The notes beneath the pieces are model-generated. The model made no database searches. It was not told the DNA's origin and saw nothing but the letters and a program-made list of their open reading frames with translations. 47,167 nucleotides of DNA from the IMG/VR virus record IMGVR_UViG_2861084961_000002; one strand, given 5' to 3'. The stretch's first letter is position 1, and each line of letters begins with the position of its first letter. This document shows positions 3,119-31,686 of the stretch, one piece after another. The position numbers and the translations under genes are program-made. Source of the stretch: a virus. Taxonomy: Duplodnaviria > Heunggongvirae > Uroviricota > Caudoviricetes.

Positions 3119-3127
3119 TAAATTTAC

Positions 3128-3826: not shown

Positions 3827-3956
3827 ATTCACTCCATAAATACAAAAGCGCATTACTATAGCACTTAACCGATCGCTTATCTCGCCCGTTCGTCATTCTT
3901 ATCTAACCAGAACATGCGACTGCCACAGCACATGTCGAGGATTGCTGCATGTCCAG

Positions 3957-7439: not shown

Positions 7440-7572
7440 TTTTGGGTACTCCTGGCTGATTAAGTATGTCGATAAGGCGTTTCCATCCGTCACGTAATTT
7501 ACGGGTGATTCGTTCAAGTAAAGATTCGGAAGGGCAGCCAGCAACAGGCCACCCTGCAATGGCATATTGCAT
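7432..7572 (-). CDS. cIII: CIII, FtsH inhibitor (C-terminus 8 aa shorter than the 54 aa I recall for lambda)
   Basis: [46 protein letters not shown]; AAGGAG RBS upstream. Confidence 0.85.
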   Translation of the reverse strand: MQYAIAGWPVAGCPSESLLERITRKLRDGWKRLIDILNQPGVPKNG

Positions 7573-7710
7573 GGTGTGCTCCTTATTTATACATAACGAA
7601 AAACGCCTCGAGTGAAGCGTTATTGGTATGCGGTAAAGCCGCACTCAGGCGGCCTTGATAGCCATATCATCTGAATCAAATATTCCTGATGTATCGATAT
7701 CGGTAATTCT

Positions 7711-7782
7711 TATTCCTTCGCTACCATCCATTGGAGGCCATCCTTCCTGACCATTTCCATCATTCCAGTCGAACTCACACTG
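7711..7782 (-). pseudogene. 3' fragment of the early-left gene split by the IS insertion (partner fragment 9031-9266)
   Basis: Removing the IS and one copy of the 3-bp duplication restores a continuous frame ...YGVVCEFDWNDGNGQEGCGLQWMVAKE* ending at 7710-7712. Confidence 0.55.
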
Positions 7783-7810
7783 AAGTGGTCAACAAAAACT
7801 GGCCACCGAG

Positions 7811-8958
<1,148 letters not shown>

Positions 8959-9030
8959 TATGGCACCTGTGTTGTTCTGAGGTGAGCATATCACCTCTGT
9001 TCAGGTGGCCAAATTCAGTAAACCACTTCA

Positions 9031-9435: not shown

Positions 9436-10333
<898 letters not shown>

Positions 10334-10491
10334 CTGGATTCTCTTGTCAGTTAGCTTTGGTGGTGTGTGGGAGTCGTAGTCCTGAACGAAAACACCCCAC
10401 GATTGGCTCATTTGCAGCTAATCCGGATTCGCACTTCCGGCCAATGTTTCGTTTCGTATCACACACCCCAAAGCCTTCTGCTTTGAATGCT

Positions 10492-10814: not shown

Positions 10815-11672
10815 TTATCGTTTATTTCTTTGATGTTTCTTTGCAGACTCAGCTTGAGTGTTTCCATACCTGCGTTTACCGCTATTGTTTTTTCCCCTAG
10901 GCTTGCCTTTTTTTCGATCTTCCCACCAGTCAGGTGCCGGGTCTGGCTCAACATGTAAAGCATCGGCAAGTCCTGATATCAAGCTGTATGACTGAACTCC
11001 ATCAATGTGCTCTGACAGTGATGGGGTAACATTCTGTCTTAGTGGATCAAGAATAAAATCAATACCTTTAATTCTGGCGTGTTTGGCGGCAGGCACAAAG
11101 TCTGAGTCCCCAGCAACAAGGACAATTACATCAACAAGTTTTTCATAAGCTAAAGTCGTGATATCCATCCCTAGCTTGATATCAACTTGTTTTTGTTTGA
11201 TGTCATAGTAAAAATCATCATTTGTCAGTTCATCCCATTTTTTCGTTCCTTTCATCAGAGCATCAAGGGAGAATGTAGTTAGTTGCCATCGCTTATTATC
11301 AACAAGATTCCCTAATCTTAAGGCTGTTTTTCGAGTTTTTCTTAACTCTTCATGCAGCTCCGTTCTCAGAATATATGATTTTTCGAGTTTGAAATTCTTG
11401 CGACCAGGCGTCTTATTGCCAGGCTCAGGAAGTGGAAGGCGTGTTTGAATGTCGAGTGGTGGACAGTCATAGAAGTAAATTCTATAAAGCTCAAGCGGTT
11501 CCCTACGTTCTTGTGATTGACGTTTTCCATTAAGATGGGAAAGAACCATTGACCATATTACTTTCATTATGCATTGCGCAGTCAGTTCATGCTCGGCGAA
11601 GTGTTTACGATGCGTAGCATGAACACGCTGCATGAAAAAACCCGCATCAATTAAAATTGCTGCTTTCTTCAT
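10815..11672 (-). CDS. NYN-domain (PIN-like nuclease fold) protein with lysine/arginine-rich C-terminal tail; occupies the rexA/rexB position downstream of cI
   Basis: 285-aa ORF; N-terminal AAILIDAGFF and central VIVLVAGDSDFVPAAKHARIKGIDFILDPL match NYN hallmark motifs from memory; not recognised as RexA or RexB. Confidence 0.75.
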   Translation of the reverse strand: MKKAAILIDAGFFMQRVHATHRKHFAEHELTAQCIMKVIWSMVLSHLNGKRQSQERREPLELYRIYFYDCPPLDIQTRLPLPEPGNKTPGRKNFKLEKSYILRTELHEELRKTRKTALRLGNLVDNKRWQLTTFSLDALMKGTKKWDELTNDDFYYDIKQKQVDIKLGMDITTLAYEKLVDVIVLVAGDSDFVPAAKHARIKGIDFILDPLRQNVTPSLSEHIDGVQSYSLISGLADALHVEPDPAPDWWEDRKKGKPRGKNNSGKRRYGNTQAESAKKHQRNKR

Positions 11673-11799
11673 AAGAGTCCCAAAAAAATAGCCCAGAGCC
11701 GTTATGCAGATATTAACAATTGTCTGCGAACGGGGCTGGGCTTGGTTTAATTAATCTATGCCAAGTTGACTGTGCCGTCAACATAAAACTTACTTCCTA

Positions 11800-12516
<717 letters not shown>

Positions 12517-12523
12517 TTAAATC

Positions 12524-12589
12524 TATCACCGCAAGGGATAAATATCTAACACCGTGCGTGTTGACTATTTTACCTCTGGCGGTGATAAT
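12524..12589. promoter_or_regulatory. oR3-oR2-oR1 operators with divergent pRM and pR promoters
   Basis: TATCACCGCAAGGGATA, TAACACCGTGCGTGTTG, TACCTCTGGCGGTGATA; pR -35 TTGACT (12561-12566) and -10 GATAAT (12584-12589). Confidence 0.9.
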
Positions 12590-12604
12590 AGTTGCATGTA
12601 CTAA

Positions 12605-12814
<210 letters not shown>

Positions 12815-12821
12815 ATAACCC

Positions 12822-12853
12822 CGCTCTTACCCATCCCCGCCCTGAAAAAGGGC
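12822..12853 (+). promoter_or_regulatory. nutR: nutR (boxA CGCTCTTAC, boxB GCCCTGAAAAAGGGC)
   Basis: Both motifs read directly downstream of cro. Confidence 0.85.
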
Positions 12854-12932
12854 ATCCAATTAAACCACACCTATGGTGTATGCATTTATTTGCATACATT
12901 CAATCAATTGTTATCTAAGGAAATACTTACAT

Positions 12933-13226
12933 ATGGTTCGTGCAAACAAACGCAACGAGGCACTACGAATCGAGAGTGCGTTGCTTAACAAAATCGCAAT
13001 GCTTGGAACTGAGAAGACAGCGGAAGCTGTGGGAGTTGATAAGTCGCAGATCAGCAGGTGGAAGAGAGACTGGATTCCCAAGTTCTCAATGCTGCTTGCT
13101 GTTCTTGAATGGGGGGTCGTTGACGACGACATGGCTCGATTGGCGCGACAAGTTGCTGCGATTCTCACCAATAAAAAACGCCCGGCGGCAACCGAGCGTT
13201 CTGAACAAATCCAGATGGAGTTCTGA
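12933..13226 (+). CDS. cII: CII transcriptional activator
   Basis: 97-aa product MVRANKRNEALRIESALLNKIAMLGTEKTAEAVGVDKSQISRWKRDW... inside track ORF 12873-13226. Confidence 0.95.
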   Translation: MVRANKRNEALRIESALLNKIAMLGTEKTAEAVGVDKSQISRWKRDWIPKFSMLLAVLEWGVVDDDMARLARQVAAILTNKKRPAATERSEQIQMEF

Positions 13227-13248
13227 GGTCATTACTGGATCTATCAAC
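13172..13248 (-). ncRNA. oop: OOP antisense RNA (position inferred from lambda; ends approximate)
   Basis: Minus-strand hairpin plus T-run near 13165-13195 antisense to the cII 3' end; coordinates transferred from the lambda map, not determined independently. Confidence 0.4.
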
Positions 13249-13258
13249 AGGAGTCATT

Positions 13259-14158
13259 ATGACAAATACAGCAAAAATACTCAACTTCGGCAGAGGTAAC
13301 TTTGCCGGACAGGAGCGTAATGTGGCAGATCTCGATGATGGTTACGCCAGACTATCAAATATGCTGCTTGAGGCTTATTCGGGCGCAGATCTGACCAAGC
13401 GACAGTTTAAAGTGCTGCTTGCCATTCTGCGTAAAACCTATGGGTGGAATAAACCAATGGACAGAATCACCGATTCTCAACTTAGCGAGATTACAAAGTT
13501 ACCTGTCAAACGGTGCAATGAAGCCAAGTTAGAACTCGTCAGAATGAATATTATCAAGCAGCAAGGCGGCATGTTTGGACCAAATAAAAACATCTCAGAA
13601 TGGTGTATCCCTCAAAACGAGGGACAATCCCCTAAAACGAGGGATAAAACATCCCTCAAATTGGGGGATTGCTATCCCTCAAAACAGGGGGACACAAAAG
13701 ACACTATTACAAAAGAAAAAAGAAAAGATTATTCGTCAGAGAATTCTGGCGAATCCTCTGACCAGCCAGAAAACGATCTTTCTGTGGTTAAACCGGATGC
13801 TGCAATTCAGAGCGGCAGCAAGTGGGGGACAGCAGAAGACCTGACCGCCGCAGAGTGGATGTTTGACATGGTGAAGACTATCGCACCATCAGCCAGAAAA
13901 CCGAATTTTGCTGGGTGGGCTAACGATATCCGCCTGATGCGTGAACGTGACGGACGTAACCACCGCGATATGTGTGTGCTTTTCCGCTGGGCCTGCCAGG
14001 ACAACTTCTGGTCCGGTAACGTGCTGAGTCCGGCCAAACTCCGCGACAAGTGGACCCAGCTCGAAATCAACCGTAACAAGCAACAGGCAGGCGTGACAGC
14101 CAGCAAACCAAAACTCGACCTGACAAACACTGACTGGATTTACGGGGTGGATTTATGA
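13259..14158 (+). CDS. O: Replication initiator O
   Basis: 299-aa ORF recognised as lambda O; contains the ori iterons. Confidence 0.97.
   Translation: MTNTAKILNFGRGNFAGQERNVADLDDGYARLSNMLLEAYSGADLTKRQFKVLLAILRKTYGWNKPMDRITDSQLSEITKLPVKRCNEAKLELVRMNIIKQQGGMFGPNKNISEWCIPQNEGQSPKTRDKTSLKLGDCYPSKQGDTKDTITKEKRKDYSSENSGESSDQPENDLSVVKPDAAIQSGSKWGTAEDLTAAEWMFDMVKTIAPSARKPNFAGWANDIRLMRERDGRNHRDMCVLFRWACQDNFWSGNVLSPAKLRDKWTQLEINRNKQQAGVTASKPKLDLTNTDWIYGVDL
13607..13745 (+). repeat. ori-lambda: four ATCCCTCAAAACGAGGGA-type iterons plus adjacent AT-rich tract
   Basis: Tandem iterons read directly inside the O gene, followed by an A/T-rich segment. Confidence 0.9.
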
Positions 14159-14856
14159 AAAACATCGCCGCACAGATGGTTAACTTTGACCGTGAGCAGA
14201 TGCGTCGGATCGCCAACAACATGCCGGAACAGTACGACGAAAAGCCGCAGGTACAACAGGTAGCGCAGATCATCAATGGTGTGTTCAGCCAGTTACTGGC
14301 AACTTTCCCGGCGAGCCTGGCTAACCGGGACCAGAACGAACTGAACGAAATCCGCCGCCAGTGGGTGCTGGCTTTCCGGGAAAACGGGATCACCACAATG
14401 GAACAGGTTAACGCAGGAATGCGCGTAGCCCGTCGGCAGAATCGACCATTTCTGCCATCACCCGGGCAGTTTGTTGCATGGTGCCGGGAAGAAGCATCCG
14501 TTATCGCCGGACTGCCAAACGTCAGCGAGCTGGTTGATATGGTTTACGAGTATTGCCGGAAGCGAGGCCTGTATCCGGATGCGGAGTCTTATCCGTGGAA
14601 ATCAAACGCGCACTACTGGCTGGTTACCAACCTGTATCAGAACATGCGGGCCAATGCGCTTACTGATGCGGAATTACGCCGTAAGGCCGCAGATGAGCTT
14701 GTCCATATGACTGCGAGAATTAACCGTGGTGAGGCGATCCCTGAACCAGTAAAACAACTTCCTGTCATGGGCGGTAGACCTCTAAATCGTGCACAGGCTC
14801 TGGCGAAGATCGCAGAAATCAAAGCTAAGTTCGGACTGAAAGGAGCAAGTGTATGA
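14155..14856 (+). CDS. P: Replication protein P (DnaB loader)
   Basis: 233-aa ORF recognised as lambda P. Confidence 0.97.
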   Translation: MKNIAAQMVNFDREQMRRIANNMPEQYDEKPQVQQVAQIINGVFSQLLATFPASLANRDQNELNEIRRQWVLAFRENGITTMEQVNAGMRVARRQNRPFLPSPGQFVAWCREEASVIAGLPNVSELVDMVYEYCRKRGLYPDAESYPWKSNAHYWLVTNLYQNMRANALTDAELRRKAADELVHMTARINRGEAIPEPVKQLPVMGGRPLNRAQALAKIAEIKAKFGLKGASV

Positions 14857-15143
14857 CGGGCAAAGAGGCAATTATTCATTACCTGGGGACGCATAATAGC
14901 TTCTGTGCGCCGGACGTTGCCGCGCTAACAGGCGCAACAGTAACCAGCATAAATCAGGCCGCGGCTAAAATGGCACGGGCAGGTCTTCTGGTTATCGAAG
15001 GTAAGGTCTGGCGAACGGTGTATTACCGGTTTGCTACCAAGGAAGAACGGGAAGGAAAGATGAGCACGAACCTGATTTTTAAGGAGTGTCGCCAGAGTGC
15101 CGCGATGAAACGGGTATTGGCGGTATATGGAGTTAAAAGATGA
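14853..15143 (+). CDS. ren: Ren
   Basis: 96-aa ORF MTGKEAIIHYLGTHNSFCAPDVAALTGATVTSINQAAAKMARAG... Confidence 0.9.
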   Translation: MTGKEAIIHYLGTHNSFCAPDVAALTGATVTSINQAAAKMARAGLLVIEGKVWRTVYYRFATKEEREGKMSTNLIFKECRQSAAMKRVLAVYGVKR

Positions 15144-15216
15144 CCATCTACATCACTGAGCTAATAACAGGCCTGCTGGTAATCGCAGGCCTTTTTATTT
15201 GGGGGAGAGGGAAGTC

Positions 15217-15657
15217 ATGAAAAAACTAACCTTTGAAATTCGATCTCCAGCACATCAGCAAAACGCTATTCACGCAGTACAGCAAATCCTTCCAGACCCA
15301 ACCAAACCAATCGTAGTAACCATTCAGGAACGCAACCGCAGCTTAGACCAAAACAGGAAGCTATGGGCCTGCTTAGGTGACGTCTCTCGTCAGGTTGAAT
15401 GGCATGGTCGCTGGCTGGATGCAGAAAGCTGGAAGTGTGTGTTTACCGCAGCATTAAAGCAGCAGGATGTTGTTCCTAACCTTGCCGGGAATGGCTTTGT
15501 GGTAATAGGCCAGTCAACCAGCAGGATGCGTGTAGGCGAATTTGCGGAGCTATTAGAGCTTATACAGGCATTCGGTACAGAGCGTGGCGTTAAGTGGTCA
15601 GACGAAGCGAGACTGGCTCTGGAGTGGAAAGCGAGATGGGGAGATCGGGCTGCATGA
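15217..15657 (+). CDS. ninB: NinB recombination protein
   Basis: 146-aa product MKKLTFEIRSPAHQQNAIHAVQQILPDPTKPIVVTIQERNRSLDQNRKLWACLGDV... Confidence 0.93.
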   Translation: MKKLTFEIRSPAHQQNAIHAVQQILPDPTKPIVVTIQERNRSLDQNRKLWACLGDVSRQVEWHGRWLDAESWKCVFTAALKQQDVVPNLAGNGFVVIGQSTSRMRVGEFAELLELIQAFGTERGVKWSDEARLALEWKARWGDRAA

Positions 15658-16181
15658 CTATCAAATCAAATACGCCAGCACACGACAAGGACTGCTGGCA
15701 AACGCCGCTTTGGCTTTTTGATGCACTGGATATTGAGTTTGGATTCTGGCTGGATTCTGCAGCGAGCGACAAAAATGCTCTGTGTGCTCACTGGCTAACT
15801 GAGGCCGACGACGCGCTCAATTCTGAGTGGGTAAGCCACGGTGCAATCTGGAATAACCCACCGTACAGCAATATCAGGCCGTGGGTGGAAAAAGCCGCTG
15901 AGCAGTGCATACAACAGCGACAGACGGTAGTTATGCTTGTGCCAGAGGATATGTCAGTCGGATGGTTCAGCAAGGCTCTGGAGAGTGTCGACGAAGTTCG
16001 CATTATCACTGATGGACGGATTAATTTTATCGAACCATCGACAGGGCTGGAGAAGAAGGGAAACAGCAAAGGCTCCATGCTGCTGATTTGGCGACCGTTC
16101 ATCAGTCCTCGACGGATGTTTACTACCGTATCCAAAGCGGCATTGATGGCGATCGGGCAGGGCGTCAGGAGGGCGGCATGA
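15654..16181 (+). CDS. Phage Dam-type DNA N6-adenine methyltransferase (in the ninC position)
   Basis: Start [26 protein letters not shown]... with ATGA overlap to ninB; NPPY motif (IWNNPPYSN). Confidence 0.8.
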
Positions 16182-16354
16182 GGCGACAGCGACGAAGTTT
16201 CACCGACATCATCTGCGAAAACTGCAAATACCTTCCAACGAAACGCTCCAGAAATAAACGCAAGCCAATCCCAAAAGAATCTGACGTAAAAACCTTCAAT
16301 TACACAGCTCACCTGTGGGATATCCGGTGGCTAAGATATCGTGCGAGGAAATGA
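16178..16354 (+). CDS. ninE: NinE-like protein
   Basis: 58-aa product [58 protein letters not shown]; AGGAGG RBS; ATGA overlap. Confidence 0.75.
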
Positions 16355-16698
16355 CAATGGATTATTCACAGTTAAGTGATTTTGAAATTAACAGAATGGT
16401 AGGAGACATAATTTTTAAAGGCCTTTGGGCAAGTAAACCGGAAACATCAGGGAATAACACCAACAAATGGTATTACGGAAATGCTGATACAACTTTTGAG
16501 CCATTAAATCATTTGCCTGACTACTGCAATGATCCGAGCGCTTCATGGCCGATTATTGAGAAATACAGGATTTCTATCTTAGACCAGTTAACTGAATGGT
16601 GTGTGGATGCAAAAGGCGTAAGCCCAATATTTGATGCCAGACCTCTCCGCGCCGCCATGATTGTCTTTCTCCTGATGCAGGAGGCCAATAATGCTTAG
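16351..16698 (+). CDS. Hypothetical nin-region protein
   Basis: 115-aa ORF from ATG 16351 with GAGGAA RBS; not recognised. Confidence 0.6.
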
Positions 16699-16885
16699 CC
16701 CATCTCAATCCCTTCAATACCTGAAAGGAAGCATAGAGCGGGCTTCAATGTGCACAGAGTGGATTCTATCTAGGTTTAGCGCATACAGAAGATTGCCGGT
16801 AAAGGGCATGCCAAGCAAGTCGATGCTGCATATGCAAAAGAATGCGCGCTGGAAGGTATGGCGAGAACACAGGTTATCTGGCTGA
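16691..16885 (+). CDS. NinF-like protein (N-terminus as in lambda NinF, divergent C-terminus)
   Basis: [18 protein letters not shown]... resembles the NinF N-terminus I recall; the rest does not. Confidence 0.5.
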
Positions 16886-16904
16886 AAGAGGGGGTTATTA
16901 AGGC

Positions 16905-17267
16905 GTGAATACCTACAGCATCACATTACCCTGGCCTCCGAGCAATAATCGCTATTACCGCCATAATCGCGGGCGCACGCACGTTAGCGCAGAGGGGCAG
17001 GCATACTGCGATAACGTCGCCCGAATCATTAAAAACGCAATGCTGGATATCGGCCTGGCTATGCCTGTGAAAATCCGCATTGAGTGCCACATGCCGGATC
17101 GCCGTCGCCGTGACCTGGATAATCTGCAAAAAGCCTCTTTTGACGCACTCACCAAAGCAGGTTTCTGGCTGGATGATGCTCAGGTCGTTGATTACCGCGT
17201 TGTGAAGATGCCTGTTACCAAAGGTGGGAGGCTGGAACTGACCATCACCGAAATGGGGAATGAATGA
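16905..17267 (+). CDS. rusA: RusA Holliday-junction resolvase
   Basis: 120-aa [50 protein letters not shown]... Confidence 0.92.
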
Positions 17268-17404
17268 TGTTTGAGTTTAATATGGCAGAACTTCTTCGCC
17301 ACCGCTGGGGGCGTCTGCGCTTATATCGTTTCCCCGGTTCTGTTTTGACCGATTACCGAATACTGAAGAATTACGCCAAAACCCTGACAGGAGCAGGAGT
17401 ATGA
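17264..17404 (+). CDS. ylcG: Small protein YlcG-like (46 aa)
   Basis: Hand-translated [46 protein letters not shown], overlapping rusA stop; same position as DLP12 ylcG. Confidence 0.6.
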
Positions 17405-17489
17405 AGTCAGAGATAACAATCAACTAATACTGTTTTGTTGATTTTTGCTTGTAATTGGCGTTCTGGTCTGATTTTTGTGGAGTAAGTTG

Positions 17490-17873
17490 ATGCGTGATAT
17501 TCAGATGGTTCTTGAGCGTTGGGGAGCGTGGGCGGCTAATAATCATGAAGATGTGACCTGGTCGTCCATTGCCGCCGGTTTTAAGGGATTAATTACTTCA
17601 AAAGTAAAATCTCGCCCGCAATGTTGTGACGATGACGCGATGATCATTTGCGGGTGCATGGCCCGTCTGAAAAAGAACAACAGCGATTTGCACGATTTAT
17701 TAGTAGATTATTATGTAGTCGGTATGACATTCATGTCACTGGCAGGTAAGCATTGCTGCTCTGATGGTTATATCGGGAAAAGGTTACAGAAGGCTGAGGG
17801 TATAATTGAAGGGATGTTAATGGCATTAGATATCCGGTTAGAGATGGATATCGTTGTTAATAACTCTAATTAA
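17490..17873 (+). CDS. Q: Late antiterminator Q (phage 82 / QuuD type)
   Basis: 127-aa product [60 protein letters not shown]...; GGAG RBS. Confidence 0.9.
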
Positions 17874-18060
17874 TATGCCAATTGTTTACTAAAAATTATT
17901 AAAAATGGGGCGTTGAGACGCCCCCAAAAATAAAGGGTAATATATAACAGAAGGTTTATATAGTTAGAAGCAAGGTTGTGCTTCTAAAGGAAGTGGCTTG
18001 AGGGAGCCACTTATATGTTGGGGAGGCAACGCCTCCCGCAACATATCTTTTTCGTAATCA
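17874..18060. promoter_or_regulatory. Q-proximal late regulatory region with four stem-loops (putative pR'/qut; minus-strand porin terminator at 17889-17924)
   Basis: Hairpins at about 17907-17924, 17966-17985, 17992-18011 and 18021-18037; the first is followed on the minus strand by ATTTTTAATAATTTTT. Confidence 0.4.
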
Positions 18061-18062
18061 GA

Positions 18063-19160
18063 TTAGAACTGGTAAACCAGACCTACAGCAACGATGTCAT
18101 CAGTGCTTACACCGAGTGCTTTAGTGAAGTCATTTTTGTCAAGCAGGTTGATTTTGTAATCAACGAAAGTAGACATATTTTTGTTGAAGTAATAGGTTGC
18201 ACCTACATCAACATATTTGACTAAGTCCTGATCGCCCCATACTCCAAGATCCTTACCTTTAGATTGCAGGTAAGCAACGGACGGACGCAGACCGAAATCG
18301 AACTGATATTGTGCAACAGCTTCGAAGTTTTGGGCTTTATTAGCAACGAAGTGATCAGCAAATACAGTCATATTCTGGGTTTCAGAATAGGTAGTGGCCA
18401 GGTAAATGTTGTTAGCGTCATATTTCAGACCTGCGGCCCAAACTTCTGCATTTTTACCGGAAGCAAATACTTCAGGAAGAACTTTCCCTGCATTAACTTG
18501 AGTGTCGGTACGATCAGATTTCGCATAAGTTGCACCGATACCGAATCCTTCGTATTCATAGGTAGCAGAGAAACCGAAGCCATCACCGTTACCTTCAGTG
18601 TAGTTATCGAAATCGCTACGATCGTTTTTGCCTTGGTACTGAGCAGCAAAATTCAGACCATCAACCAGACCAAAGAAGTCGTTGTTACGATAGGTTGCAA
18701 CACCAGTTGCACGTTGAGTCATGAACACGTCGGTTTGAGTCCAAGTGTCACCACCGAATTCTGGCAGGACGTCAGTCCACGCACCGATGTCGTATGCTAC
18801 ACCGTAGTTACGGCCGTAATCGATGGAGCCGTAGTCACCGAATTTCAGGCCAGCGAAGGCAAGACGGGTTTTATCTTTGGAGGAACCTTGAGATTCAGCG
18901 CGGTTGCCTTTGAATTCATATTCCCACTGACCGAAACCAGTCAGTTGATCGTTGATTTGGGTTTCACCTTTGAAGCCAAGACGGGCATAAGTAGTATCAC
19001 CATCATCTGCATCATTAGAGGAGAAGTAGTGCTTAGCATTAACTTTCCCGTACAGATCCAGCTTGTTACTGTCTTTATTATAAATTTCAGCTGCCTGAGC
19101 AGACATCGCCATCAGTACTGATGCAGCTACAGCAGAAATTGCCACTGTTAATTTTTTCAT
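18063..19160 (-). CDS. nmpC: Outer-membrane porin, NmpC/Lc (OmpC-family) type; lysogenic-conversion gene
   Basis: Start [23 protein letters not shown] (signal peptide) inside track ORF 18063-19220; C-terminal ...VAVGLVYQF beta-barrel signature. Confidence 0.9.
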
Positions 19161-19587
19161 CGTGAGCCCTTTTTTTGAACTATTATTAAAAAATGATGTC
19201 ACTGCGCGATAAATATTCATCTAATCAATGTGATTATTTCAAGATGTAAGTTTTGGTTTCTCGTTTGATTTGTGAAGTAGATCTCTATTTTTATCTGAAC
19301 TTTTTTCTATCGAATCCTATTCATGGCTCTTGGCTGAATAAAAATAAATCTGTTAGCCAATTTATATTAACGGCTGTTATTTATAAGCGCTCTATAATTT
19401 GAAGGTTCAATTTAAACCAGCTAAAAATAACACTGGAAATTATTTGTTGGTTATTTGTTGAGATTTGCTTATGTATTTGTAGTGGTGTTTTCAATACTCG
19501 GTAGCATTCTCGCAAATATCATTTAGTGGTTTACGTACGTAAAAAATTGGTTATGCTGTTAAGAGTGGTTACTTCGTCACACAGCTT

Positions 19588-19620
19588 AAACCCGCCGTCG
19601 AGCGGGTTTTTCCATTTTTT
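19588..19620 (+). terminator. Rho-independent terminator upstream of the lysis genes (tR'-like)
   Basis: Stem AAACCCGC/GCGGGTTT with 6-nt loop followed by TTTTCCATTTTTT. Confidence 0.6.
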
Positions 19621-19732
19621 GAGTCTCGATATTAGCTGATAACCCAATACCTGAGTTATTCACTGACTCCGAGTCTGTTACGTTTCGTAGTATTCCCTCA
19701 ATTTACACCCGCTTTGTCTGCGAGGTGGGGTT

Positions 19733-19948
19733 ATGAAATCCATGGATAAGTTAACAACGGGTGTCGCCTATGGCACCTCAGCAGGTAGTGCCGGGTACTG
19801 GTTTTTACAGCTGCTAGATAAAGTCACGCCCTCACAGTGGGCGGCAATTGGAGTGCTGGGTAGCCTGGTATTTGGCCTGCTGACGTACCTGACAAACCTT
19901 TATTTCAAGATTAAAGAAGATAAGCGCAAGGCTGCGAGAGGTGGATAA
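19733..19948 (+). CDS. S: Holin (phage 21 S-type; dual start MKSMDK)
   Basis: 71-aa ORF with transmembrane segments and charged C-terminus; GAGGTGGGG RBS. Confidence 0.9.
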
Positions 19949-20445
19949 TGCCTCCATCATTACGAAAAGCTGTTGCTGCTGCTATTGGTGGCGGGGCTAT
20001 TGCTATAGCATCTGTATTAATCACTGGCCCAAGTGGTAACGATGGTCTGGAAGGTGTGAGACATAATCCTTACAAAGACATAGTTGGTGTATGGACTGTA
20101 TGTCACGGGCATACAGGAAAAGACATCATTCCCGGTAAAACGTATACCGAAGCAGAGTGCAAAGCCCTCCTGAATAAAGACCTTGCCACTGTCGCCAGAC
20201 AAATTAACCCGTACATCAAAGTCGATATACCGGAAACAACGCGCGGCGCTCTTTACTCGTTCGTCTACAACGTGGGTGCTGGCAATTTCAGAACATCGAC
20301 GCTTCTTCGCAAAATAAACCAGTGTGATATTAAAGGCGCATGTGATCAGCTACGTCGCTGGACATATGCTGGCGGTAAGCAATGGAAAGGTCTCATGACT
20401 CGTCGTGAGATTGAGCGTGAAATCTGTTTGTGGGGTCAGCAATGA
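19948..20445 (+). CDS. R: Endolysin (lysozyme, SAR-type N-terminus)
   Basis: 165-aa ORF with hydrophobic N-terminus [15 protein letters not shown] and lysozyme-like body; overlaps holin stop. Confidence 0.9.
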
Positions 20446-20903
20446 ACAGAGTAACCGCGATTATCTCCGCTCTGGTTATCTGCATCATCGTCGGCCTGTC
20501 ATGGGCTGTTAATCATTACCGTGATAACGCCATTACCTACAAAGCCCAGCGCGACAAAAATGCCAGAGAACTGAAGCTGGCGAACGCGGCAATTACTGAC
20601 ATGCAGATGCGTCAGCGTGATGTTGCTGCGCTCGATGCAAAATACACGAAGGAGTTAGCTGATGCGAAAGCTGAAAATGATGCTCTGCGTGATGATGTTG
20701 CCGCTGGTCGTCGTCGGTTGCACATCAAAGCAGTCTGTCAGTCAGTGCGTGAAGCCACCACCGCCTCCGGCGTGGATAATGCAGCCTCCCCCCGACTGGC
20801 AGACACCGCTGAACGGGATTATTTCACCCTCAGAGAGAGGCTGATTACTATGCAAAAACAACTGGAAGGAACCCAGAAGTATATTAATGAGCAGTGCAGA
20901 TAG
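20442..20903 (+). CDS. Rz: Spanin inner-membrane subunit Rz
   Basis: Start [22 protein letters not shown] (TM) then coiled coil; overlaps endolysin stop. Confidence 0.85.
20662..20844 (+). CDS. Rz1: Spanin outer-membrane lipoprotein subunit Rz1, embedded in Rz
   Basis: 60-aa ORF with lipobox VVGC and proline-rich tail, in the +1 frame of Rz. Confidence 0.85.
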
Positions 20904-20934
20904 AGCTGCCCATATCTATGGGCAACTCATGCAA

Positions 20935-21228
20935 TTATTGTGAGCAATACACACGCGCTTCCAGCGGAGTATAAATGCCTAAAGTAATAAAACCGAGAAA
21001 TCCATTTACGAATGTTTGCTGGGTTTCTGTTTTAACAACATTTTCTGCGCCGCCACAAATTTTGGCTGCATCAACAGTTTTCTCCTGTCCAATTCCCGAA
21101 ACGAAGAAATGATGGGTGATGGTTTCCTTTGGTGTTACTGCTGTCGGTTTGTTTCCAACAGTAAACGTCTGTTGAGCACATCCTGTAATAAGCATTGCCA
21201 GAGCGGCAGAAAACAACATTTTTTTCAT
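20935..21228 (-). CDS. bor: Bor lipoprotein (serum-resistance, lysogenic conversion)
   Basis: 97-aa product MKKMLFSAALAMLITGCAQQTFTVGNKPTAVTPKETITHHFFVSGIGQEKTVDAAKICGG... Confidence 0.92.
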   Translation of the reverse strand: MKKMLFSAALAMLITGCAQQTFTVGNKPTAVTPKETITHHFFVSGIGQEKTVDAAKICGGAENVVKTETQQTFVNGFLGFITLGIYTPLEARVYCSQ

Positions 21229-21588
21229 CTTATTATCCTGCATTGTTAAAAACGGCAGAATCCTATGTGACAACAATTAAACGATAGTTAAATGGATTGA
21301 TGAAAATTAAAACTATATAGGTGGATGCTCAGCCTATTGGAGGAGGGGGGGCACTCAGAATCCTGTGGAATGAAATAAACCGCTCTTTCTGTCCATTACC
21401 CTTTTAGCTGCGCTGTATCGTCGCCGTATTCCCGCATTAACCATGACCGTAGCCCGACGGGGAATTCCTTCTGCGTGAGTGTGCGGGAATAATCAAAAAC
21501 GATGCACACCGGGTTTTACTGTGCTGACAGACGCAGGGTTACCCTCATAGTCGCTTTTCCGGTGCGATGGTGGAAGAAACCGGGATGT

Positions 21589-21783: not shown

Positions 21784-21983
21784 GAGGTTGCCCCGTATTC
21801 AGTGTCGCTGATTTGTATTGTCTGAAGTTGTTTTTACGTTAAGTTGATGCAGATCAATTAATACGATACCTGCGTCATAATTGATTATTTGACGTGGTTT
21901 GATGGCGTAGATGCACGTTGTGACATATAGATGATAATTATTATCATTTTGCGGGTCCTTTCCGGCGATCCGACAGGTTACGG

Positions 21984-21995
21984 GGCGGCGACCTC
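21984..21995 (+). other. cos: cosN cohesive-end site GGGCGGCGACCT (cosQ upstream, cosB downstream)
   Basis: Lambda left-end sequence GGGCGGCGACCTCGCGGGTTTTCGCTATTTATGAAAATTTTCCGG read directly; upstream matches the lambda right end. Confidence 0.93.
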
Positions 21996-22171
21996 GCGGG
22001 TTTTCGCTATTTATGAAAATTTTCCGGTTTAAGGCGTTTCCGTTCTTCTTCGTCGTAACTTAATGTTTTTATTTAAAATACCCCCTGAAAAGAAAGGAAA
22101 CGACAGGTGCTGAAAACGAGCTTTTGGGCCTCTGTCGTTTCCTTTCTCTGTTTTTGGCCGTGGAATGAACA

Positions 22172-22690
22172 ATGGAAGTCAACAAAAAGCAGCTGGCTGA
22201 CATTTTCGGTGCGAGTATCCGTACCATTCAGAACTGGCAGGAACAGGGAATGCCCGTTCTGCGAGGCGGTGGCAAGGGTAATGAGGTGCTTTATGACTCT
22301 GCCGCCGTCATAAAATGGTATGCCGAAAGGGATGCTGAAATTGAGAACGAAAAGCTGCGCCGGGAAGTTGAAGAACTGCGGCAGGCCAGCGAGACAGATC
22401 TCCAGCCAGGGACTATTGAGTACGAACGCCATCGACTTACGCGTGCGCAGGCCGACGCACAGGAGCTGAAAAATGCCAGAGACTCCGCTGAAGTGGTGGA
22501 AACCGCATTCTGTACTTTCGTGCTGTCGCGGATCGCAGGTGAAATTGCCAGTATTCTCGACGGGATCCCCTGTCGGTGCAGCGGCGTTTTCCGGAACTGG
22601 AAAACCGACATGTTGATTTCCTGAAACGGGATATCATCAAAGCCATGAACAAAGCAGCCGCGCTGGATGAACTGATACCGGGGTTGCTGA

Positions 22691-22716
<26 letters not shown>
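22172..22716 (+). pseudogene. nu1: Terminase small subunit Nu1, frameshifted by a 1-nt deletion in a C-run at 22566-22570
   Basis: Track ORF ends at 22624 after DGIPCRCSGVFRNWKTDMLIS; the lambda C-terminus ...RFPELENRHVDFLKRDIIKAMNKAAALDELIPGLLSEYIEQSG is intact in the +1 frame to 22716. Confidence 0.85.
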
Positions 22717-26397
<3,681 letters not shown>

Positions 26398-26417
<20 letters not shown>

Positions 26418-27717
26418 TCTCCCGCATATTGCCAGTATGGCCTTTAATGAGCCGCTGATGCTTGAACCCGCCTATGCGCGGGTTTTCTTTTGTGCGCTTG
26501 CAGGCCAGCTTGGGATCAGCCGCCTGACGGATGCGGTATCCGGCGACAGCCTGACTGCCGGAGAGGCACCCGCGGCGCTGGCGTTATCCGTTGATGATGA
26601 CGGACCACGACAGGCCCGCAGTTATCAGGTCATGAACGGCATCGCCGTGCTGCCGGTGTCCGGCACGCTGGTCAGTCGGACGCGAGCGCTGCAGCCGTAT
26701 TCGGGGATGACCGGTTACAACGGCATTATCGCCCGTCTGCAACAGGCTGCCAGCGACCCGATGGTGGACGGCATTCTGCTCGATATGGATACGCCAGGCG
26801 GGATGGTGGCAGGGGCATTTGACTGCGCTGACATCATCGCCCGTGTGCGTGACATAAAGCCGGTATGGGCGCTGGCCAACGACATGAACTGCAGTGCAGG
26901 TCAGTTGCTTGCCAGCGCCGCCTCCCGACGTCTGGTCACGCAGACCGCCCGGACAGGCTCCATCGGCGTCATGATGGCTCACAGTAATTACGGTGCTGCG
27001 CTGGAGAAACAGGGCGTGGAAATCACGCTGATTTACAGCGGCAGCCATAAGGTGGATGGCAACCCCTACAGCCATCTACCGGATGATGTCCGGGAAACAC
27101 TGCAGTCCCGGATGGATGCAACCCGCCGGATGTTTGCACAGAAGGTGTCGGCATATACCGGCCTGTCCGTGCAGGCTGTGCTGGATACCGAGGCTGCAGT
27201 GTACAGCGGTCAGGAGGCCATTGATGCCGGACTGGCTGATGAACTTGTTAACAGTACCGATGCGATCACCGTCATGCGTGATGCACTGGATGCACGTAAA
27301 TCCCGTCTCTCAGGAGGGCGAATGACCAAAGAGACTCAATCAACAACTGTTTCAGCCACTGCTTCGCAGGCTGACGTTACTGGCGTGGTGCAAGCGACGG
27401 AGGGCGAGAACGCCAGCGCGGCGCAGCCGGACGTGAACGCGCAGATCACCGCAGCGGTTGCGGCAGAAAACAGTCGCATTATGGGGATCCTCAACTGTGA
27501 GGAGGCTCACGGACGCGAAGAACAGGCACGCGTGCTGGCCGAAACCCCCGGTATGACCGTGGAAACGGCCCGCCGCATTCTGGCAGCTGCACCACAGAGT
27601 GCACAGGCGCGCAGTGACACTGCGCTGGATCGTCTGATGCAGGGGGCACCGGCACCGCTGGCTGCAGGTAACCCGGCATCTGATGCCGTTAACGATTTGC
27701 TGAACACACCAGTGTAA
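26398..27717 (+). CDS. C: Capsid assembly protease C (GTG start)
   Basis: 439-aa product VTAELRNLPHIASMAFNEPLMLEPAYARVFF... inside longer track ORF 26263-27717. Confidence 0.93.
27112..27717 (+). CDS. nu3: Scaffold protein Nu3 (in-frame internal start within C)
   Basis: In-frame ATG at 27112 giving MDATRRMFAQKVSAYTGLSVQ..., as recalled for lambda Nu3. Confidence 0.7.
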   Translation: MDATRRMFAQKVSAYTGLSVQAVLDTEAAVYSGQEAIDAGLADELVNSTDAITVMRDALDARKSRLSGGRMTKETQSTTVSATASQADVTGVVQATEGENASAAQPDVNAQITAAVAAENSRIMGILNCEEAHGREEQARVLAETPGMTVETARRILAAAPQSAQARSDTALDRLMQGAPAPLAAGNPASDAVNDLLNTPV

Positions 27718-27726
27718 GGGATGTTT

Positions 27727-28059
27727 ATGACGAGCAAAGAAACCTTTACCCATTACCAGCCGCTGGGCAACAGTGACCCGGCACATACGGCAACCGCGCC
27801 CGGCGGATTGAGTGCGAAAGCGCCTGCAATGACCCCGCTGATGCTGGATACCTCCACCCGTAAGCTGGTTGCGTGGGATGGCACCACCGACGGTGCTGCC
27901 GTTGGCATTCTGGCGGTTGATGCTGACCAGACCAGCACCACGCTGACGTTCTACAAGTCCGGCACGTTCCGTTATGAGGATGTGCTCTGGCCGGAGGCTG
28001 CCAGCGACGAGACGAAAAAACGGACCGCGTTTGCCGGAACGGCAATCAGCATCGTTTAA
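27727..28059 (+). CDS. D: Capsid decoration protein D
   Basis: 110-aa product [41 protein letters not shown]... Confidence 0.97.
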
Positions 28060-28077
28060 CTTTACCCTTCATCACTA

Positions 28078-28101
28078 AAGGCCGCCTGTGCGGCTTTTTT
28101 T
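28078..28101 (+). terminator. Rho-independent terminator between D and E
   Basis: Stem GCCGC/GCGGC with loop CTGT followed by TTTTTTT. Confidence 0.6.
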
Positions 28102-28114
28102 ACGGGATTTTTTT

Positions 28115-29140
28115 ATGTCGATGTACACAACCGCCCAGCTGCTGGCGGCAAATGAGCAGAAATTTAAGTTTGATCCGCTGTTTCTGCGTCTCTTTTTCCG
28201 TGAGAGCTATCCCTTCACTACGGAGAAAGTCTATCTCTCACAAATTCCGGGACTGGTAAACATGGCGCTGTACGTTTCGCCGATTGTTTCCGGTGAGGTT
28301 ATCCGTTCCCGTGGCGGCTCCACCTCTGAATTTACGCCGGGATATGTCAAACCCAAGCATGAAGTGAATCCGCAGATGACCCTGCGTCGCCTGCCGGATG
28401 AAGATCCGCAGAATCTGGCGGACCCGGCTTACCGCCGCCGTCGCATCATCCTGCAGAACATGCGTGACGAAGAGCTGGCCATTGCTCAGGTCGAAGAGAT
28501 GCAGGCAGTTTCTGCCGTGCTCAAGGGCAAATACACCATGACCGGTGAAGCCTTCGATCCGGTTGAGGTGGATATGGGCCGCAGTGCGGCGAACAACATC
28601 ACGCAGTCCGGCGGCACGGAGTGGAGCAAGCGTGACAAGTCCACGTATGACCCGACCGACGATATCGAAGCCTACGCGCTGAACGCCAGCGGCGTGGTGA
28701 ATATCATCGTGTTTGATCCGAAAGGCTGGGCGCTGTTCCGTTCCTTCAACGCCGTCAAGGAGAAGCTGGATACCCGTCGCGGCTCTCATTCCGAGCTGGA
28801 GACAGCGGTGAAAGACCTGGGTAAAGCGGTGTCCTATAAGGGGATGTATGGCGATGTGGCCATCGTCGTGTATTCCGGACAGTACGTGGAAAACGGCGTC
28901 AAAAAGAACTTCCTGCCGGACAACACGATGGTGCTGGGTAACACTCATGCACGCGGTCTGCGCACCTATGGCTGCATTCAGGATGCGGACGCACAGCGCG
29001 AAGGCATTAACGCCTCTGCCCGTTACCCGAAAAACTGGGTGACCACCGGCGATCCGGCGCGTGAGTTCACCATGATTCAGTCAGCACCGCTGATGCTGCT
29101 GGCTGACCCTGATGAGTTCGTGTCCGTACAACTGGCGTAA
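28115..29140 (+). CDS. E: Major capsid protein E
   Basis: 341-aa product MSMYTTAQLLAANEQKFKFDPLFLRLFFRESYPFTTEKVYLSQIPGLVNMA... Confidence 0.97.
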   Translation: MSMYTTAQLLAANEQKFKFDPLFLRLFFRESYPFTTEKVYLSQIPGLVNMALYVSPIVSGEVIRSRGGSTSEFTPGYVKPKHEVNPQMTLRRLPDEDPQNLADPAYRRRRIILQNMRDEELAIAQVEEMQAVSAVLKGKYTMTGEAFDPVEVDMGRSAANNITQSGGTEWSKRDKSTYDPTDDIEAYALNASGVVNIIVFDPKGWALFRSFNAVKEKLDTRRGSHSELETAVKDLGKAVSYKGMYGDVAIVVYSGQYVENGVKKNFLPDNTMVLGNTHARGLRTYGCIQDADAQREGINASARYPKNWVTTGDPAREFTMIQSAPLMLLADPDEFVSVQLA

Positions 29141-29181
29141 TCATGGCCCTTCGGGGCCATTGTTTCTCTGTGGAGGAGTCC

Positions 29182-29577
29182 ATGACGAAAGATGAACTGA
29201 TTGCCCGTCTCCGCTCGCTGGGTGAACAACTGAACCGTGATGTCAGCCTGACGGGGACGAAAGAAGAACTGGCGCTCCGTGTGGCAGAGCTGGAAGAGGA
29301 GCTTGATGACACGGATGACGCTGCCGGTCAGGACACATCTGTCAGCCCGGAAAATGCGCTGACCGGACATGAAAATGAGGTGGTATCAGCGCAGCCGGAT
29401 ACCGTGACTGATACGGCTGATCTGGTCACGGTTGTGGCACTGGTGACGCTGCATACTGATGCACTTCACGCCACGCGGGATGAGGCTGTGGCATTTGTGC
29501 TGCCGGGAACGGCGTTCCGTGTCTCTGCCGGTGTGGCAGCTGAAATGACAGAGCGCGGCCTGGCCAGAATGCAATAA
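29182..29577 (+). CDS. FI: DNA-packaging protein FI
   Basis: Start MTKDELIARLRSLGEQLNRDVSLTGTKEELALRVAELEEEL... inside track ORF 29143-29577. Confidence 0.93.
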   Translation: MTKDELIARLRSLGEQLNRDVSLTGTKEELALRVAELEEELDDTDDAAGQDTSVSPENALTGHENEVVSAQPDTVTDTADLVTVVALVTLHTDALHATRDEAVAFVLPGTAFRVSAGVAAEMTERGLARMQ

Positions 29578-29588
29578 CGGGAGGCGCT

Positions 29589-29942
29589 GTGGCTGATTTC
29601 GATAACCTGTTCGATGCTGCCATTGCCCGCGCCGATGAAACGATACGCGGGTACATGGGAACGTCAGCCACCATGACATCCGGTGAGCAGTCCGGCGCAG
29701 TAATACGTGGTGTTTTTGATGACCCTGAAAATATCAGCTATGCCGGACAGGGCGTACGCGTTGAAGGCTCCAGCCCGTCCCTGTTTGTCCGGACTGATGA
29801 TGTGCGGCAGCTGCGGCGCGGCGACACGCTGACCATCGGTGAGGAAAACTTCTGGATAGACCGGATTTCGCCGGATGATGGCGGAAGCTGTCATCTCTGG
29901 CTTGGGCGGGGCGTACCGCCTGCCGTTAACCGTCGCCGCTGA
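29589..29942 (+). CDS. FII: Head completion protein FII
   Basis: 117-aa ORF recognised as lambda gpFII. Confidence 0.95.
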   Translation: MADFDNLFDAAIARADETIRGYMGTSATMTSGEQSGAVIRGVFDDPENISYAGQGVRVEGSSPSLFVRTDDVRQLRRGDTLTIGEENFWIDRISPDDGGSCHLWLGRGVPPAVNRRR

Positions 29943-29953
29943 AAGGGGGATGT

Positions 29954-30531
29954 ATGGCCATAAAAGGTCTTGAGCAGGCCGTTGAAAACCTCAGCCGTAT
30001 CAGCAGAACGGCGGTGCCCGGTGCCGCCGCAATGGCCATTAACCGCGTTGCTTCATCCGCGATATCGCAGTCGGCGTCACAGGTTGCCCGTGAGACAAAG
30101 GTACGCCGGAAACTGGTAAAGGAAAGGGCCTGGCTGAAAAGGGCCACGGTCAAAAATCCGCAGGCCAGAATCAAGGTTAACCGGGGGATTTGCCCGTAAT
30201 AAAGCTGGGTAACGCGCGGATTGTCCTGTCCCGACGCAGGCGTCGTAAAAAGGGGCAGCGTTCAGCCCTGAAAGGTGGCGGCAGCGTGCTTGTGGTGGGA
30301 AACCGTCGTATTCCCGGCGCGTTTATTCAGCAACTGAAAAATGGCCGCTGGCATGTCATGCAGCGTGTGGCCGGGAAAAACCGTTACCCCATTGATGTGG
30401 TGAAAATCCCGATGGCGGTGCCGCTGACCACGGCGTTTAAACAGAATATTGAGCGGATACGGCGTGAGCGTCTTCCGAAAGAGCTGGGCTATGCGCTGCA
30501 GCATCAACTGAGGATGGTAATAAAGCGATGA
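29954..30531 (+). pseudogene. Z: Tail completion protein Z, frameshifted by a 1-nt deletion in a G-run at 30183-30187
   Basis: Z is split into track ORFs 29954-30199 (ends ...NRGICP*) and 30190-30531 (MPVIKLGNARIVLSRRRRRKKGQR...); lambda reads NRGDLPVIKLG across this point. Confidence 0.85.
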
Positions 30532-30923
30532 AACATACTGAACTCCGTGCAGCCGTACTGGATGCACTGGAGAAGCATGACACCGGGGCGACGTTTTTTG
30601 ATGGTCGCCCTGCTGTTTTTGATGAGGAAGATTTTCCGGCAATTGCCGTTTATCTCACCGGCGCTGAATACACGGGCGAAGAGCTGGACAGCGATACCTG
30701 GCAGGCGGAGCTGCATATTGAAGTTTTCCTGCCTGCTCAGGTGCCGGATTCAGAGCTGGATGCGTGGATGGAGTCCCGGATTTATCCGGTGATGAGCGAT
30801 ATCCCGGCACTGTCAGATTTGATCACCAGTATGGTGGCCAGTGGCTATGACTACCGGCGCGACGATGATGCGGGCTTGTGGAGTTCTGCCGATCTGACGT
30901 ATGTCATTACCTATGAAATGTGA
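30528..30923 (+). CDS. U: Tail terminator protein U
   Basis: 131-aa ORF recognised as lambda gpU. Confidence 0.95.
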
Positions 30924-30930
30924 GGACGAT

Positions 30931-31671
30931 ATGCCTGTACCAAATCCAGCAATACCGGTGAAAGGTGCCGGAACCACCCTGTGGGTTTATAAGGGGAGCG
31001 GTGACCCTTATGCGAACCCGCTTTCAGACGTTGACTGGTCGCGTCTGGCAAAAGTTAAAGACCTGACGCCCGGCGAACTGACCGCTGAGTCCTATGACGA
31101 CAGCTATCTCGATGATGAAGATGCAGACTGGACTGCGACCGGGCAGGGGCAGAAATCTGCCGGAGATACCAGCTTCACGCTGGCGTGGATGCCCGGAGAG
31201 CAGGGGCAGCAGGCGCTGCTGGCGTGGTTTAATGAAGGTGATACCCGTGCCTATAAAATCCGCTTCCCGAACGGCACGGTCGATGTGTTCCGTGGCTGGG
31301 TCAGCAGTATCGGTAAGGCGGTGACGGCGAAGGAAGTGATTACCCGCACGGTGAAGGTCACCAATGTGGGCCGTCCGTCGATGGCAGAAGATCGCAGCAC
31401 GGTGACGGCGACGACCGGCATGACGGTGACACCCGCCAGTGCTTCCGTAGTGAAAGGGCAGAGCACCACGCTGACCGTGGCATTCCAGCCGGATGGCGCA
31501 ACCGACAAGAGCTTCCGTGCGGTGTCTGCGGATAAAACAAAAGCCACCGTGTCGGTCAGTGGTATGACCATCACCGTGAAAGGTGTTGCTGCAGGCAAGG
31601 TCAACATTCCGGTCGTATCTGGTAATGGTGAGTTTGCTGCGGTTGCAGAAATCAACGTCACCGCCAGTTAA
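30931..31671 (+). CDS. V: Major tail tube protein V (with C-terminal Ig-like domain)
   Basis: 246-aa product [45 protein letters not shown]... Confidence 0.97.
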
Positions 31672-31686
31672 TCCGGAGAGTCAGCG

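Follow-up and report, generated by a model that had tools for sequence, protein, structure and literature searches.

Where does late transcription begin in a lambdoid prophage in which an oppositely oriented gene separates the late antiterminator gene, Q, from the lysis genes? The question is raised by a prophage of the Caudoviricetes (IMG/VR record IMGVR_UViG_2861084961_000002), whose 47,167 nucleotides (nt) are here called the window. At 17490-21228 it carries Q, a porin gene of the OmpC family on the minus strand, plus-strand genes for a holin, an endolysin and Rz/Rz1, and finally bor, again on the minus strand. A preliminary description of this locus held that the late transcript runs antisense through the porin gene and on past a strong terminator, so that induction interferes with porin expression. 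The gene content, strands and coordinates given there agree with the open reading frame (ORF) and Pfam results, and the terminator-like hairpin with a T-run at 19588-19620 (+) is found both by terminator scan and by folding. The antisense late transcript is not borne out, as the only copy of the late promoter cassette lies downstream of the porin gene. We hold it very probable that the late transcript starts there, at a displaced pR' cassette, and that the porin gene is a self-contained piece of lysogenic-conversion cargo between Q and pR'.

The cassette occupies 85 bp at 19530-19620, between the porin and holin genes. In a sensitive search with the porin-holin spacer, 356 phage records were matched, about 320 of them over 19529-19611 only. 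In 933W and VT1-Sakai this stretch is annotated as the pR' promoter, qut and a terminator, and it overlaps the 3' end of Q. The late promoter of the window (19530-19557, +) aligns base for base with the features called 'pR' putative late promoter' in these two phages, with a -35 hexamer TTTACG (19530-19535), a 16-nt spacer and a -10 hexamer TATGCT (19552-19557). It is followed at 19560-19587 (+) by the late start and a conserved initial transcribed region that includes qut and is the likely site of sigma-dependent pausing and Q loading. The leader terminator tR' (19588-19620, +) comes next. Its homologue in 933W and VT1-Sakai is the terminator that comes first after pR'; the hairpin is aligned at 19591-19613 with the T-run after it, and no other terminator stands between pR' and the holin gene. 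Because of this homology, the 'strong terminator' is to be read as the Q-controlled leader terminator, the very element on which Q acts, and not as a further obstacle to the late transcript. Phages SfII and PhiR40_1 keep the cassette from the -35 hexamer to the T-run, and their DNA upstream is unrelated. The 13-mer TAAGAGTGGTTAC is invariant in four phages and occurs a single time in the window, at 19560-19572; an invariant 12-mer of this motif, AAGAGTGGTTAC, is present once in nine of the loci compared, including Escherichia coli K-12 DLP12, PA-2, 434B and mEp332. A second, Q-adjacent copy of the cassette was looked for in the window and none was found, nor is there a promoter-like site in the 33 nt from the Q stop codon to the porin terminator. 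The late genes are thus preceded by a promoter cognate to Q, a pause/loading region and a terminator, although these elements stand 1.66 kb beyond the end of Q rather than next to it.

The start of transcription within the cassette can be placed with the help of E. coli Sakai, where differential RNA sequencing (dRNA-seq) and Term-seq give a distance of 258 nt between the pR' start and the 3' end of tR' (Sy et al., PMC7547250). In the Sakai sequence, exactly 258 nt separate the homologue of window position 19564, which is 7 nt after the -10 hexamer, from the end of the second of the annotated terminators (the two published coordinates are shifted relative to the current record, each by 135 bp). 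Since the mapped Sakai start falls on the homologue of 19564, the late transcript of the window should, by homology, have its 5' end near 19564, which is about 400 bp past the start codon of the porin gene and 169 nt ahead of that of the holin gene. Work on K-12 points to the same side of the porin gene. The fragment serving there as the lysis promoter region of DLP12, whose operon is reported to be under control of a Q-type antiterminator, RpoE and Hha (PMC7918800), corresponds to about 19088-19855 of the window, the reverse primer, which has no exact match in the window, having been positioned via the K-12 sequence. This span excludes the Q-proximal DNA and agrees with a regulatory region beyond the porin gene.

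How the cassette came to be so far from Q is suggested by the boundaries of homology. Within the clade, the homology of Q stops immediately after the codons for LEMD, and promoter homology resumes at 19529, so that the porin unit looks like an insertion between Q and pR'. In the Shiga toxin (Stx) phages 933W, H-19B and VT1-Sakai, Q is of the same clade (78% amino acid (aa) identity), and homology to the window extends over the promoter, the initial transcribed region and the first terminator. There, however, the cassette overlaps the end of Q, the cargo (tRNAs and stx) lies downstream in the late-transcribed direction, and a second terminator, at +258, provides the main 3' end. In the window, the cassette is removed from Q, the cargo between them is in reverse orientation, and the second terminator is lacking. 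A close relative with the same Q and an adjoining cassette was sought; the nearest 'empty' state found is 933W itself. Phage 1H12 lacks the cassette and cannot serve as an empty-site control. Directly after the Q stop codon, the sequence GTTTACTAAAAATT at 17886-17900 resembles the pR' -35 region, GTTTACGTACGTAAAAAATT, minus five bases; it could be a vestige of an original Q-adjacent promoter at the insertion junction, or a chance likeness.

The Q protein itself (17490-17873, +; PF06530, E = 3.5e-53) is of the QuuD type. It scores 179 bits against PF06530 (cut-off 26) with the full model covered, is 100% identical to K-12 QuuD, and shows 77-78% aa identity to Q of 933W and 84% to those of PhiR40_1 and 1H12. 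It also matches the Q21 structures 6P18 and 6JNX (E = 7.6e-7 over 80 residues), and by these sequence criteria it is a member of the Q21/Q933W family, a naming that follows Yin et al. (bioRxiv 10.1101/651190). Members of the family load on a paused early elongation complex, where a 'nozzle' on the RNA exit channel blocks the formation of terminator hairpins (bioRxiv 10.1101/651190), and by family membership the same would be expected of Q in the window. The preliminary description had taken Q to be of the phage 82 type, which it is not. BLASTP finds no similarity between the two proteins (E = 8.5, phage 82 Q being taken from X92588); the phage 82 protein, of 229 aa, belongs to PF06323, while the window Q matches PF06530 only. 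A Q82-family identity is rejected on both counts. The partial phage 82 record matches the window only over orf96-rus-orf45 (16819-17394, 95.7%), the DNA homology ending at ylcG.

The -35 region of pR' (19529-19543) is palindromic, TTTACGTACGTAAA, and the 933W version, TTTACGATCGTAAA, is still palindromic after two changes; in PhiR40_1 and SfII the palindrome is imperfect. It might belong to the element that Q binds in this clade. Q21, by contrast, binds a direct repeat.

The porin gene (18063-19160, -; PF00267, E = 4.7e-157, full model covered) is intact and, as first described, on the opposite strand. It encodes 365 aa including a 23-aa signal peptide, all 365 of which are identical to K-12 NmpC once the insertion sequence (IS) IS5 is removed, and 361 of which are shared with Lc of PA-2; the closest solved structures are OmpC and OmpK36 (E about 1e-137). 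As in the PA-2 record J02580 and in DLP12, it stands in a lambdoid late region and is divergent from the lysis genes. Judged by sequence, it is essentially the lysogenic-conversion porin Lc/NmpC. PA-2 lysogens make the Lc porin and have OmpC and OmpF lowered. Since the gene here is essentially the same, the lysogen probably makes an extra porin, by analogy to PA-2.

The porin gene also brings its own signals. In addition to what had been described, an intrinsic terminator of its transcript, GGGGCGTCTCAACGCCCC followed by ATTTTTAATA, was found by the terminator scan at 17897-17924 (-); its hairpin (17907-17924; fold z = -4.0) begins about 33-34 nt from the Q stop codon. Between the terminator and the gene, the 3' untranslated region (UTR; 17925-18062, -) forms four stem-loops with a minimum free energy of -60.4 kcal/mol (z = -9.4), and none of 200 shuffles folds as well. 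It is 99.3% identical to K-12. By position and by this identity, we take it to correspond to the ipeX element of nmpC/lc, whose function here is only presumed; in a paper cited by PMC3333887, Castillo-Keller and colleagues in 2006 reportedly described ipeX as a porin-inhibitory RNA of the nmpC/lc 3' region. No ipeX family match appeared in the Rfam gathering scan of the whole window, so the assignment leans on position and structure. Read on the plus strand, the last stem-loop of the UTR is a hairpin followed by CUUUUU (18013-18055; fold z = -6.5, no call by the scan tool), and this may be a possible terminator for transcription coming out of Q without antitermination. On the other side of the gene, the putative promoter region (19161-19300, -), placed by mapping features of J02580 on the window, is AT-rich and holds at 19268-19288 the CRP-type site that is annotated upstream of lc in PA-2. 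A sigma-70 scan upstream of the porin gene gave only weak candidates, and no start site was assigned. The other 'CRP binding site' of the PA-2 record falls, on the strand opposite pR', at 19564-19584, exactly +1 to +21, and 933W does not keep its TGTGA half-site.

Taken together, the parts would work as follows. Q would be made from the early rightward operon and find its target in the cassette at 19530-19620, on the far side of the porin gene. Without Q, pR' would give a short leader RNA, mostly ending at 19588-19620. With Q on the polymerase, transcription would read on into the genes for the pinholin, the signal-anchor-release (SAR) endolysin and Rz/Rz1, across cos, and up to the head and tail genes. 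The oppositely oriented cargo between Q and pR' would consist of a promoter region with a CRP-type site, nmpC/lc, a structured 3' UTR and its own terminator, and the porin would be expressed from the prophage as a lysogenic-conversion gene. As the cargo lies upstream of pR', the Q-dependent late transcript would never cross it. Gene identities, cassette homology, the single occurrence of the cassette and the mosaic boundaries were computed here, and the Sakai start site is from the literature; from these we infer that Q acts on the cassette of the window and that its lysogen expresses the porin.

Several observations weigh against this picture. The assignment of pR' in the window rests on homology. 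The hexamers of the promoter are weak (8 of 12 matches), and a consensus scan gave no pR' call; the scan returned fewer promoter-like sites than in shuffled sequence, and its output was counted neither for nor against. For a -10-like pause element the window has TACTTC, poorer than the TACATT of 933W. The second terminator, at +258, gives the dominant 3' end in Sakai lysogens (PMC7547250), which means that the first hairpin is leaky there; the window has no terminator at +258, and the tightness of control here is uncertain. With only the leaky type of first hairpin ahead of the holin gene, some basal expression of the lysis genes is plausible. The K-12 work counts its lysis fragment from a +1 near the equivalent of 19209 (PMC7918800), which hints at a further, host-controlled promoter upstream of pR'. 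Finally, 1H12, with a Q 84% identical, lacks the cassette and has another promoter/terminator-like element beside Q, so that this Q and this cassette are not invariably linked.

The behavior of 1H12, where that element stands ahead of a minus-strand cargo gene, also speaks for a late promoter directly after Q, as does the layout of lambda, 933W and most lambdoid phages, in which pR' abuts Q. Such a promoter would send about 1.1 kb of late transcription antisense through the porin gene and past 19588-19620, interfering with the porin. We consider this highly improbable. The Q stop codon and the porin terminator hairpin are only 33 nt apart, with no promoter-like site in that gap; the clade's cassette occurs a single time, at 19530-19620; and homology to 933W is interrupted from the LEMD codons to 19529, the pattern that an insertion between Q and pR' leaves behind. 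A different challenge, which we rate as unlikely, is that promoters under host control, lying between the porin and holin genes and dependent on RpoE or Hha as reported for DLP12 in K-12, are the main drivers of the lysis cassette, with Q and pR' vestigial in a defective prophage. The cited control by RpoE and Hha and the +1 at about 19209 (PMC7918800) would fit, and so would the frameshifted nu1, the IS3-family insertion and the IS1 at the right end of this prophage. Yet Q, the pR' cassette and all the lysis genes are intact in the window, and near-identical modules work in plaque-forming phages, such as mEp332 and ev099.

Antisense interference could also come from the early operon rather than from the late one, and this we regard as a tentative possibility. 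Transcription from pR, antiterminated by N, would pass nin, Q, the hairpins at 17907-18055 and the porin gene, and would turn the porin and ipeX off early in lytic growth. An N gene of the lambda type is found at 10010-10411 (92.6% nt identity to the N region of lambda), and upstream of Q, on the same strand, the prophage has lambda cI-cro-O-P-ren-ninB (98.6%). In lambda, N-modified polymerase reads through intrinsic terminators, and the plus-strand hairpin and T-run at 18013-18055 would halt unmodified polymerase only. The porin is stable and the lytic cycle short, which makes a phenotype doubtful. It should be noted that early read-through is compatible with a displaced pR', as it concerns the early and not the late transcript.

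The displaced pR' has parallels in other phages that keep the cassette. SfII has two minus-strand genes (gp49 and gp50) between Q and the cassette, and PhiR40_1 has one, for a 148-aa protein; no Pfam family was found for the latter or for gp50, the one of the SfII pair that was scanned. With the window, reverse-oriented cargo between Q and pR' is seen to recur, and the three cargos (nmpC/lc, the 148-aa protein, and gp49 with gp50) are unrelated. We suggest, with more doubt than confidence, that in the QuuD/Q933W clade the gap between Q and pR' is a recurrent insulated slot for reverse-oriented, lysogen-expressed cargo, with N-modified early transcription as the sole antisense input. The position upstream of pR' would shield the cargo from late transcription, and the hairpins on the Q side would shield it from unmodified early transcription; after induction, N-modified early transcription would switch the cargo off. 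In 1H12 a different promoter-like and terminator-like element directly follows Q (4040-4180 of that locus), and it is succeeded by a minus-strand lipocalin (blc) gene, two plus-strand genes and then the same holin gene. Late transcripts might cross the cargo antisense in that phage.

The arrangement of Q, porin and lysis genes has long been known and is very widespread. Several E. coli chromosomes carry the 3.9-kb block at 100% identity, 2149 of 5426 complete E. coli genomes (about 40%) have 80% or more of it, and so do 32 phage records, the best being mEp332 (98.7% over the block). The preliminary description correctly recognized a DLP12-type module on a backbone with lambda immunity and lambda structural genes. 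A late region identical to that of a known phage with lambda immunity was named there as grounds for refutation, and viable mEp332 provides such grounds: at 97.6%, it is colinear with 11804-46414 of the window, which begins with a cI region that matches lambda and reaches the tail fibres. Descriptions of the Lc/NmpC conversion porin, of the qsr' substitution, of the pairing of pinholin with SAR endolysin and of antitermination by Q date from the 1980s to the 2000s.

The comparison with DLP12 and PA-2 confirms the common layout. DLP12 (qsr') of K-12 has rusA-ylcG-quuD-nmpC-essD-rrrD-rzpD/rzoD-borD with the same gene content, order and strands as the window, with identical Q, identical porin apart from IS5, and the same pR' motif between nmpC and essD. 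The differences are that the K-12 nmpC is split by IS5 and its prophage is a remnant, whereas the porin gene of the window is intact and its module lies within a lambda-like prophage that is nearly complete and has lambda immunity. The window lacks the ybcV-ybcW segment of DLP12. The PA-2 lc record J02580, whose source paper we take to be Blasband et al. 1986, aligns end to end with 17836-20635 at 95.7%. It shares the divergence of lc from the S-R-Rz genes, and its annotated CRP-type sites occur in the window; it differs in four aa of the porin, and annotates neither a holin nor pR'. The block is also found in the lambda-like phages mEp332, ev099, PhiR26_1, Turner and ev243 and in the laboratory recombinant 434B, a mutant phage whose record documents the pick-up of exactly this block, with IS5-split nmpC, from K-12 DLP12 by recombination; lambda qsr' is a laboratory recombinant of the same kind. 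Unlike the phages of the mEp332 type, the copy in the window belongs to a prophage with IS insertions and a frameshifted nu1. Phage 21 shares with the window the Pfam family of Q (PF06530), the P21 holin family, and an endolysin, R21, that matches over its full length. At the protein level, however, Q21 is only distantly related and longer (162 aa vs. 127 aa here).

The lysis genes begin with an S21-type pinholin gene (19733-19948, +; PF04971, 'P21 holin S', E = 2e-35) with dual starts at Met1 and Met4, for a 71-aa antiholin and a 68-aa holin; such an antiholin/holin pair is annotated in the homologous 434B record. The SAR endolysin that follows (19948-20445, +; PF00959) is of the RrrD/R21 type, with full-length matches to 4ZPU (RrrD, E = 3e-106) and 3HDE (phage 21 R, E = 1e-105). 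It aligns with both from residue 1, the Gly/Ala-rich N-terminal segment included, and the pair is of the phage 21 type, a pinholin with a SAR endolysin. Next come the i-spanin Rz (20442-20903, +; PF03245, E = 2.6e-54; 94.6% nt identity to lambda 45966-46809) and, in another frame inside Rz, the o-spanin lipoprotein Rz1 (20662-20844, +; PF06085, E = 2.9e-20), which form a two-component embedded spanin. The bor/iss gene for an outer-membrane lipoprotein (20935-21228, -; PF06291, E = 3.7e-30; called iss in the identical E. coli loci) is the second lysogen-expressed gene of the block. The first base of Rz is the point where lambda homology resumes, and consequently Rz, Rz1 and bor are as lambda-like (94.6%) as they are DLP12-like (96.7%). 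The claim that the set resembles phage 82/DLP12 rather than lambda holds in its DLP12 part and does not extend to these three genes.

From its sequence, the window holds a prophage of the lambda type, inserted at the attachment site of lambda and with lambda immunity, whose late control and lysis region is of the DLP12/PA-2 type. The window starts within ybhC and has the lambda att core at 1331-1345. The stretch 11796-15657 corresponds to lambda cI through ninB (98.6% identity), and 21983-39948 to nu1 through J (96.3%), with the cos site at 21982/21983. The lambda flanks claimed for the block are therefore real, and only the boundaries drawn for the mosaic need correction. Lambda homology breaks after ninE at 16351 and is picked up again at the R/Rz junction, 20442, the stretch between being substituted relative to lambda. 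Homology to K-12 DLP12 begins at 16819, upstream of rusA, and amounts to 99.3% nt identity over 16819-18129 and 96.7% over 18121-21282. The genes leading into Q are rusA for a Holliday-junction resolvase (16905-17267, +; PF05866, E = 1.8e-21; 99.3% nt identity to DLP12 and 95.7% to X92588), which belongs to a DLP12/phage-82-like nin segment, and ylcG, the orf45 of phage 82 (17264-17404, +), named after the annotation in an identical E. coli locus. Further upstream, a Dam-type N6-adenine methyltransferase gene (15594-16181, +; PF05869) stands in for lambda ninC and ninD, and NinX (16315-16698) comes after ninE; this layout is common to mEp332 and 1H12. No tRNA genes were found in the whole window, and its Rfam gathering scan yielded two families only, IS009 and the lambda cIII thermoregulator.

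The remaining features bear on the state of the prophage and on its accessory genes. In nu1 (22172-22716), comparison with lambda nu1 and K-12 nohD reveals a 1-bp deletion in a C5 run at 22560-22575, which breaks the gene into two ORFs, a truncated one of 150 aa and, out of frame with it, one for the C-terminal part. The deletion may leave the prophage unable to package DNA, or it may be a homopolymer sequencing error. An IS3-family element (7811-8994, -; orfA 8656-8994, orfB 7811-8629) breaks lambda homology at 7780-9028, in the cIII-ea10 region; strain E5 has an ISEc52-like IS3 element at the corresponding place, and its prophage is further deleted there. The cIII thermoregulator element is at 7527-7585 (-). 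At the right end, an IS1 with InsA/InsB-like ORFs (46470-47167, +) closes the window, shortly after mEp332 homology ends at 46414. The window contains no second copy of the lambda att core, and together these findings place attR outside the window or mean that it is lost. The IS009 match (229 bits) lies at 45427-45625 (+), inside the tail-fibre assembly gene (45084-45665).

Beside cI, in the position of rexA-rexB, a 285-aa protein with an NYN domain is encoded at 10815-11672 (-; PF01936, E = 6.8e-9). It has only weak matches to the PADLOC models HEC-09 and NYN, ev099 also annotates an NYN protein, and the gene, which takes the place of rex, is a candidate for a role in exclusion or defence. 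Beside N, in the position of sieB, there is a 167-aa ORF with a Cys-rich C-terminus (9514-10017, +) that has no Pfam or PADLOC match. The region 2967-4461, between xis and ea22, is without lambda homology and includes a lipoprotein ORF (3128-3853, -) with a weak match to the LprI (lysozyme-inhibitor) domain; the same gene is annotated in E. coli E5.

In closing, placing pR' at 19530-19557 instead of beside Q alters the regulation that is predicted for this locus, as late transcription would miss both the porin gene and its ipeX 3' UTR. An annotation that assumes pR' always to abut Q would mis-predict the expression of the cargo in a widespread module.

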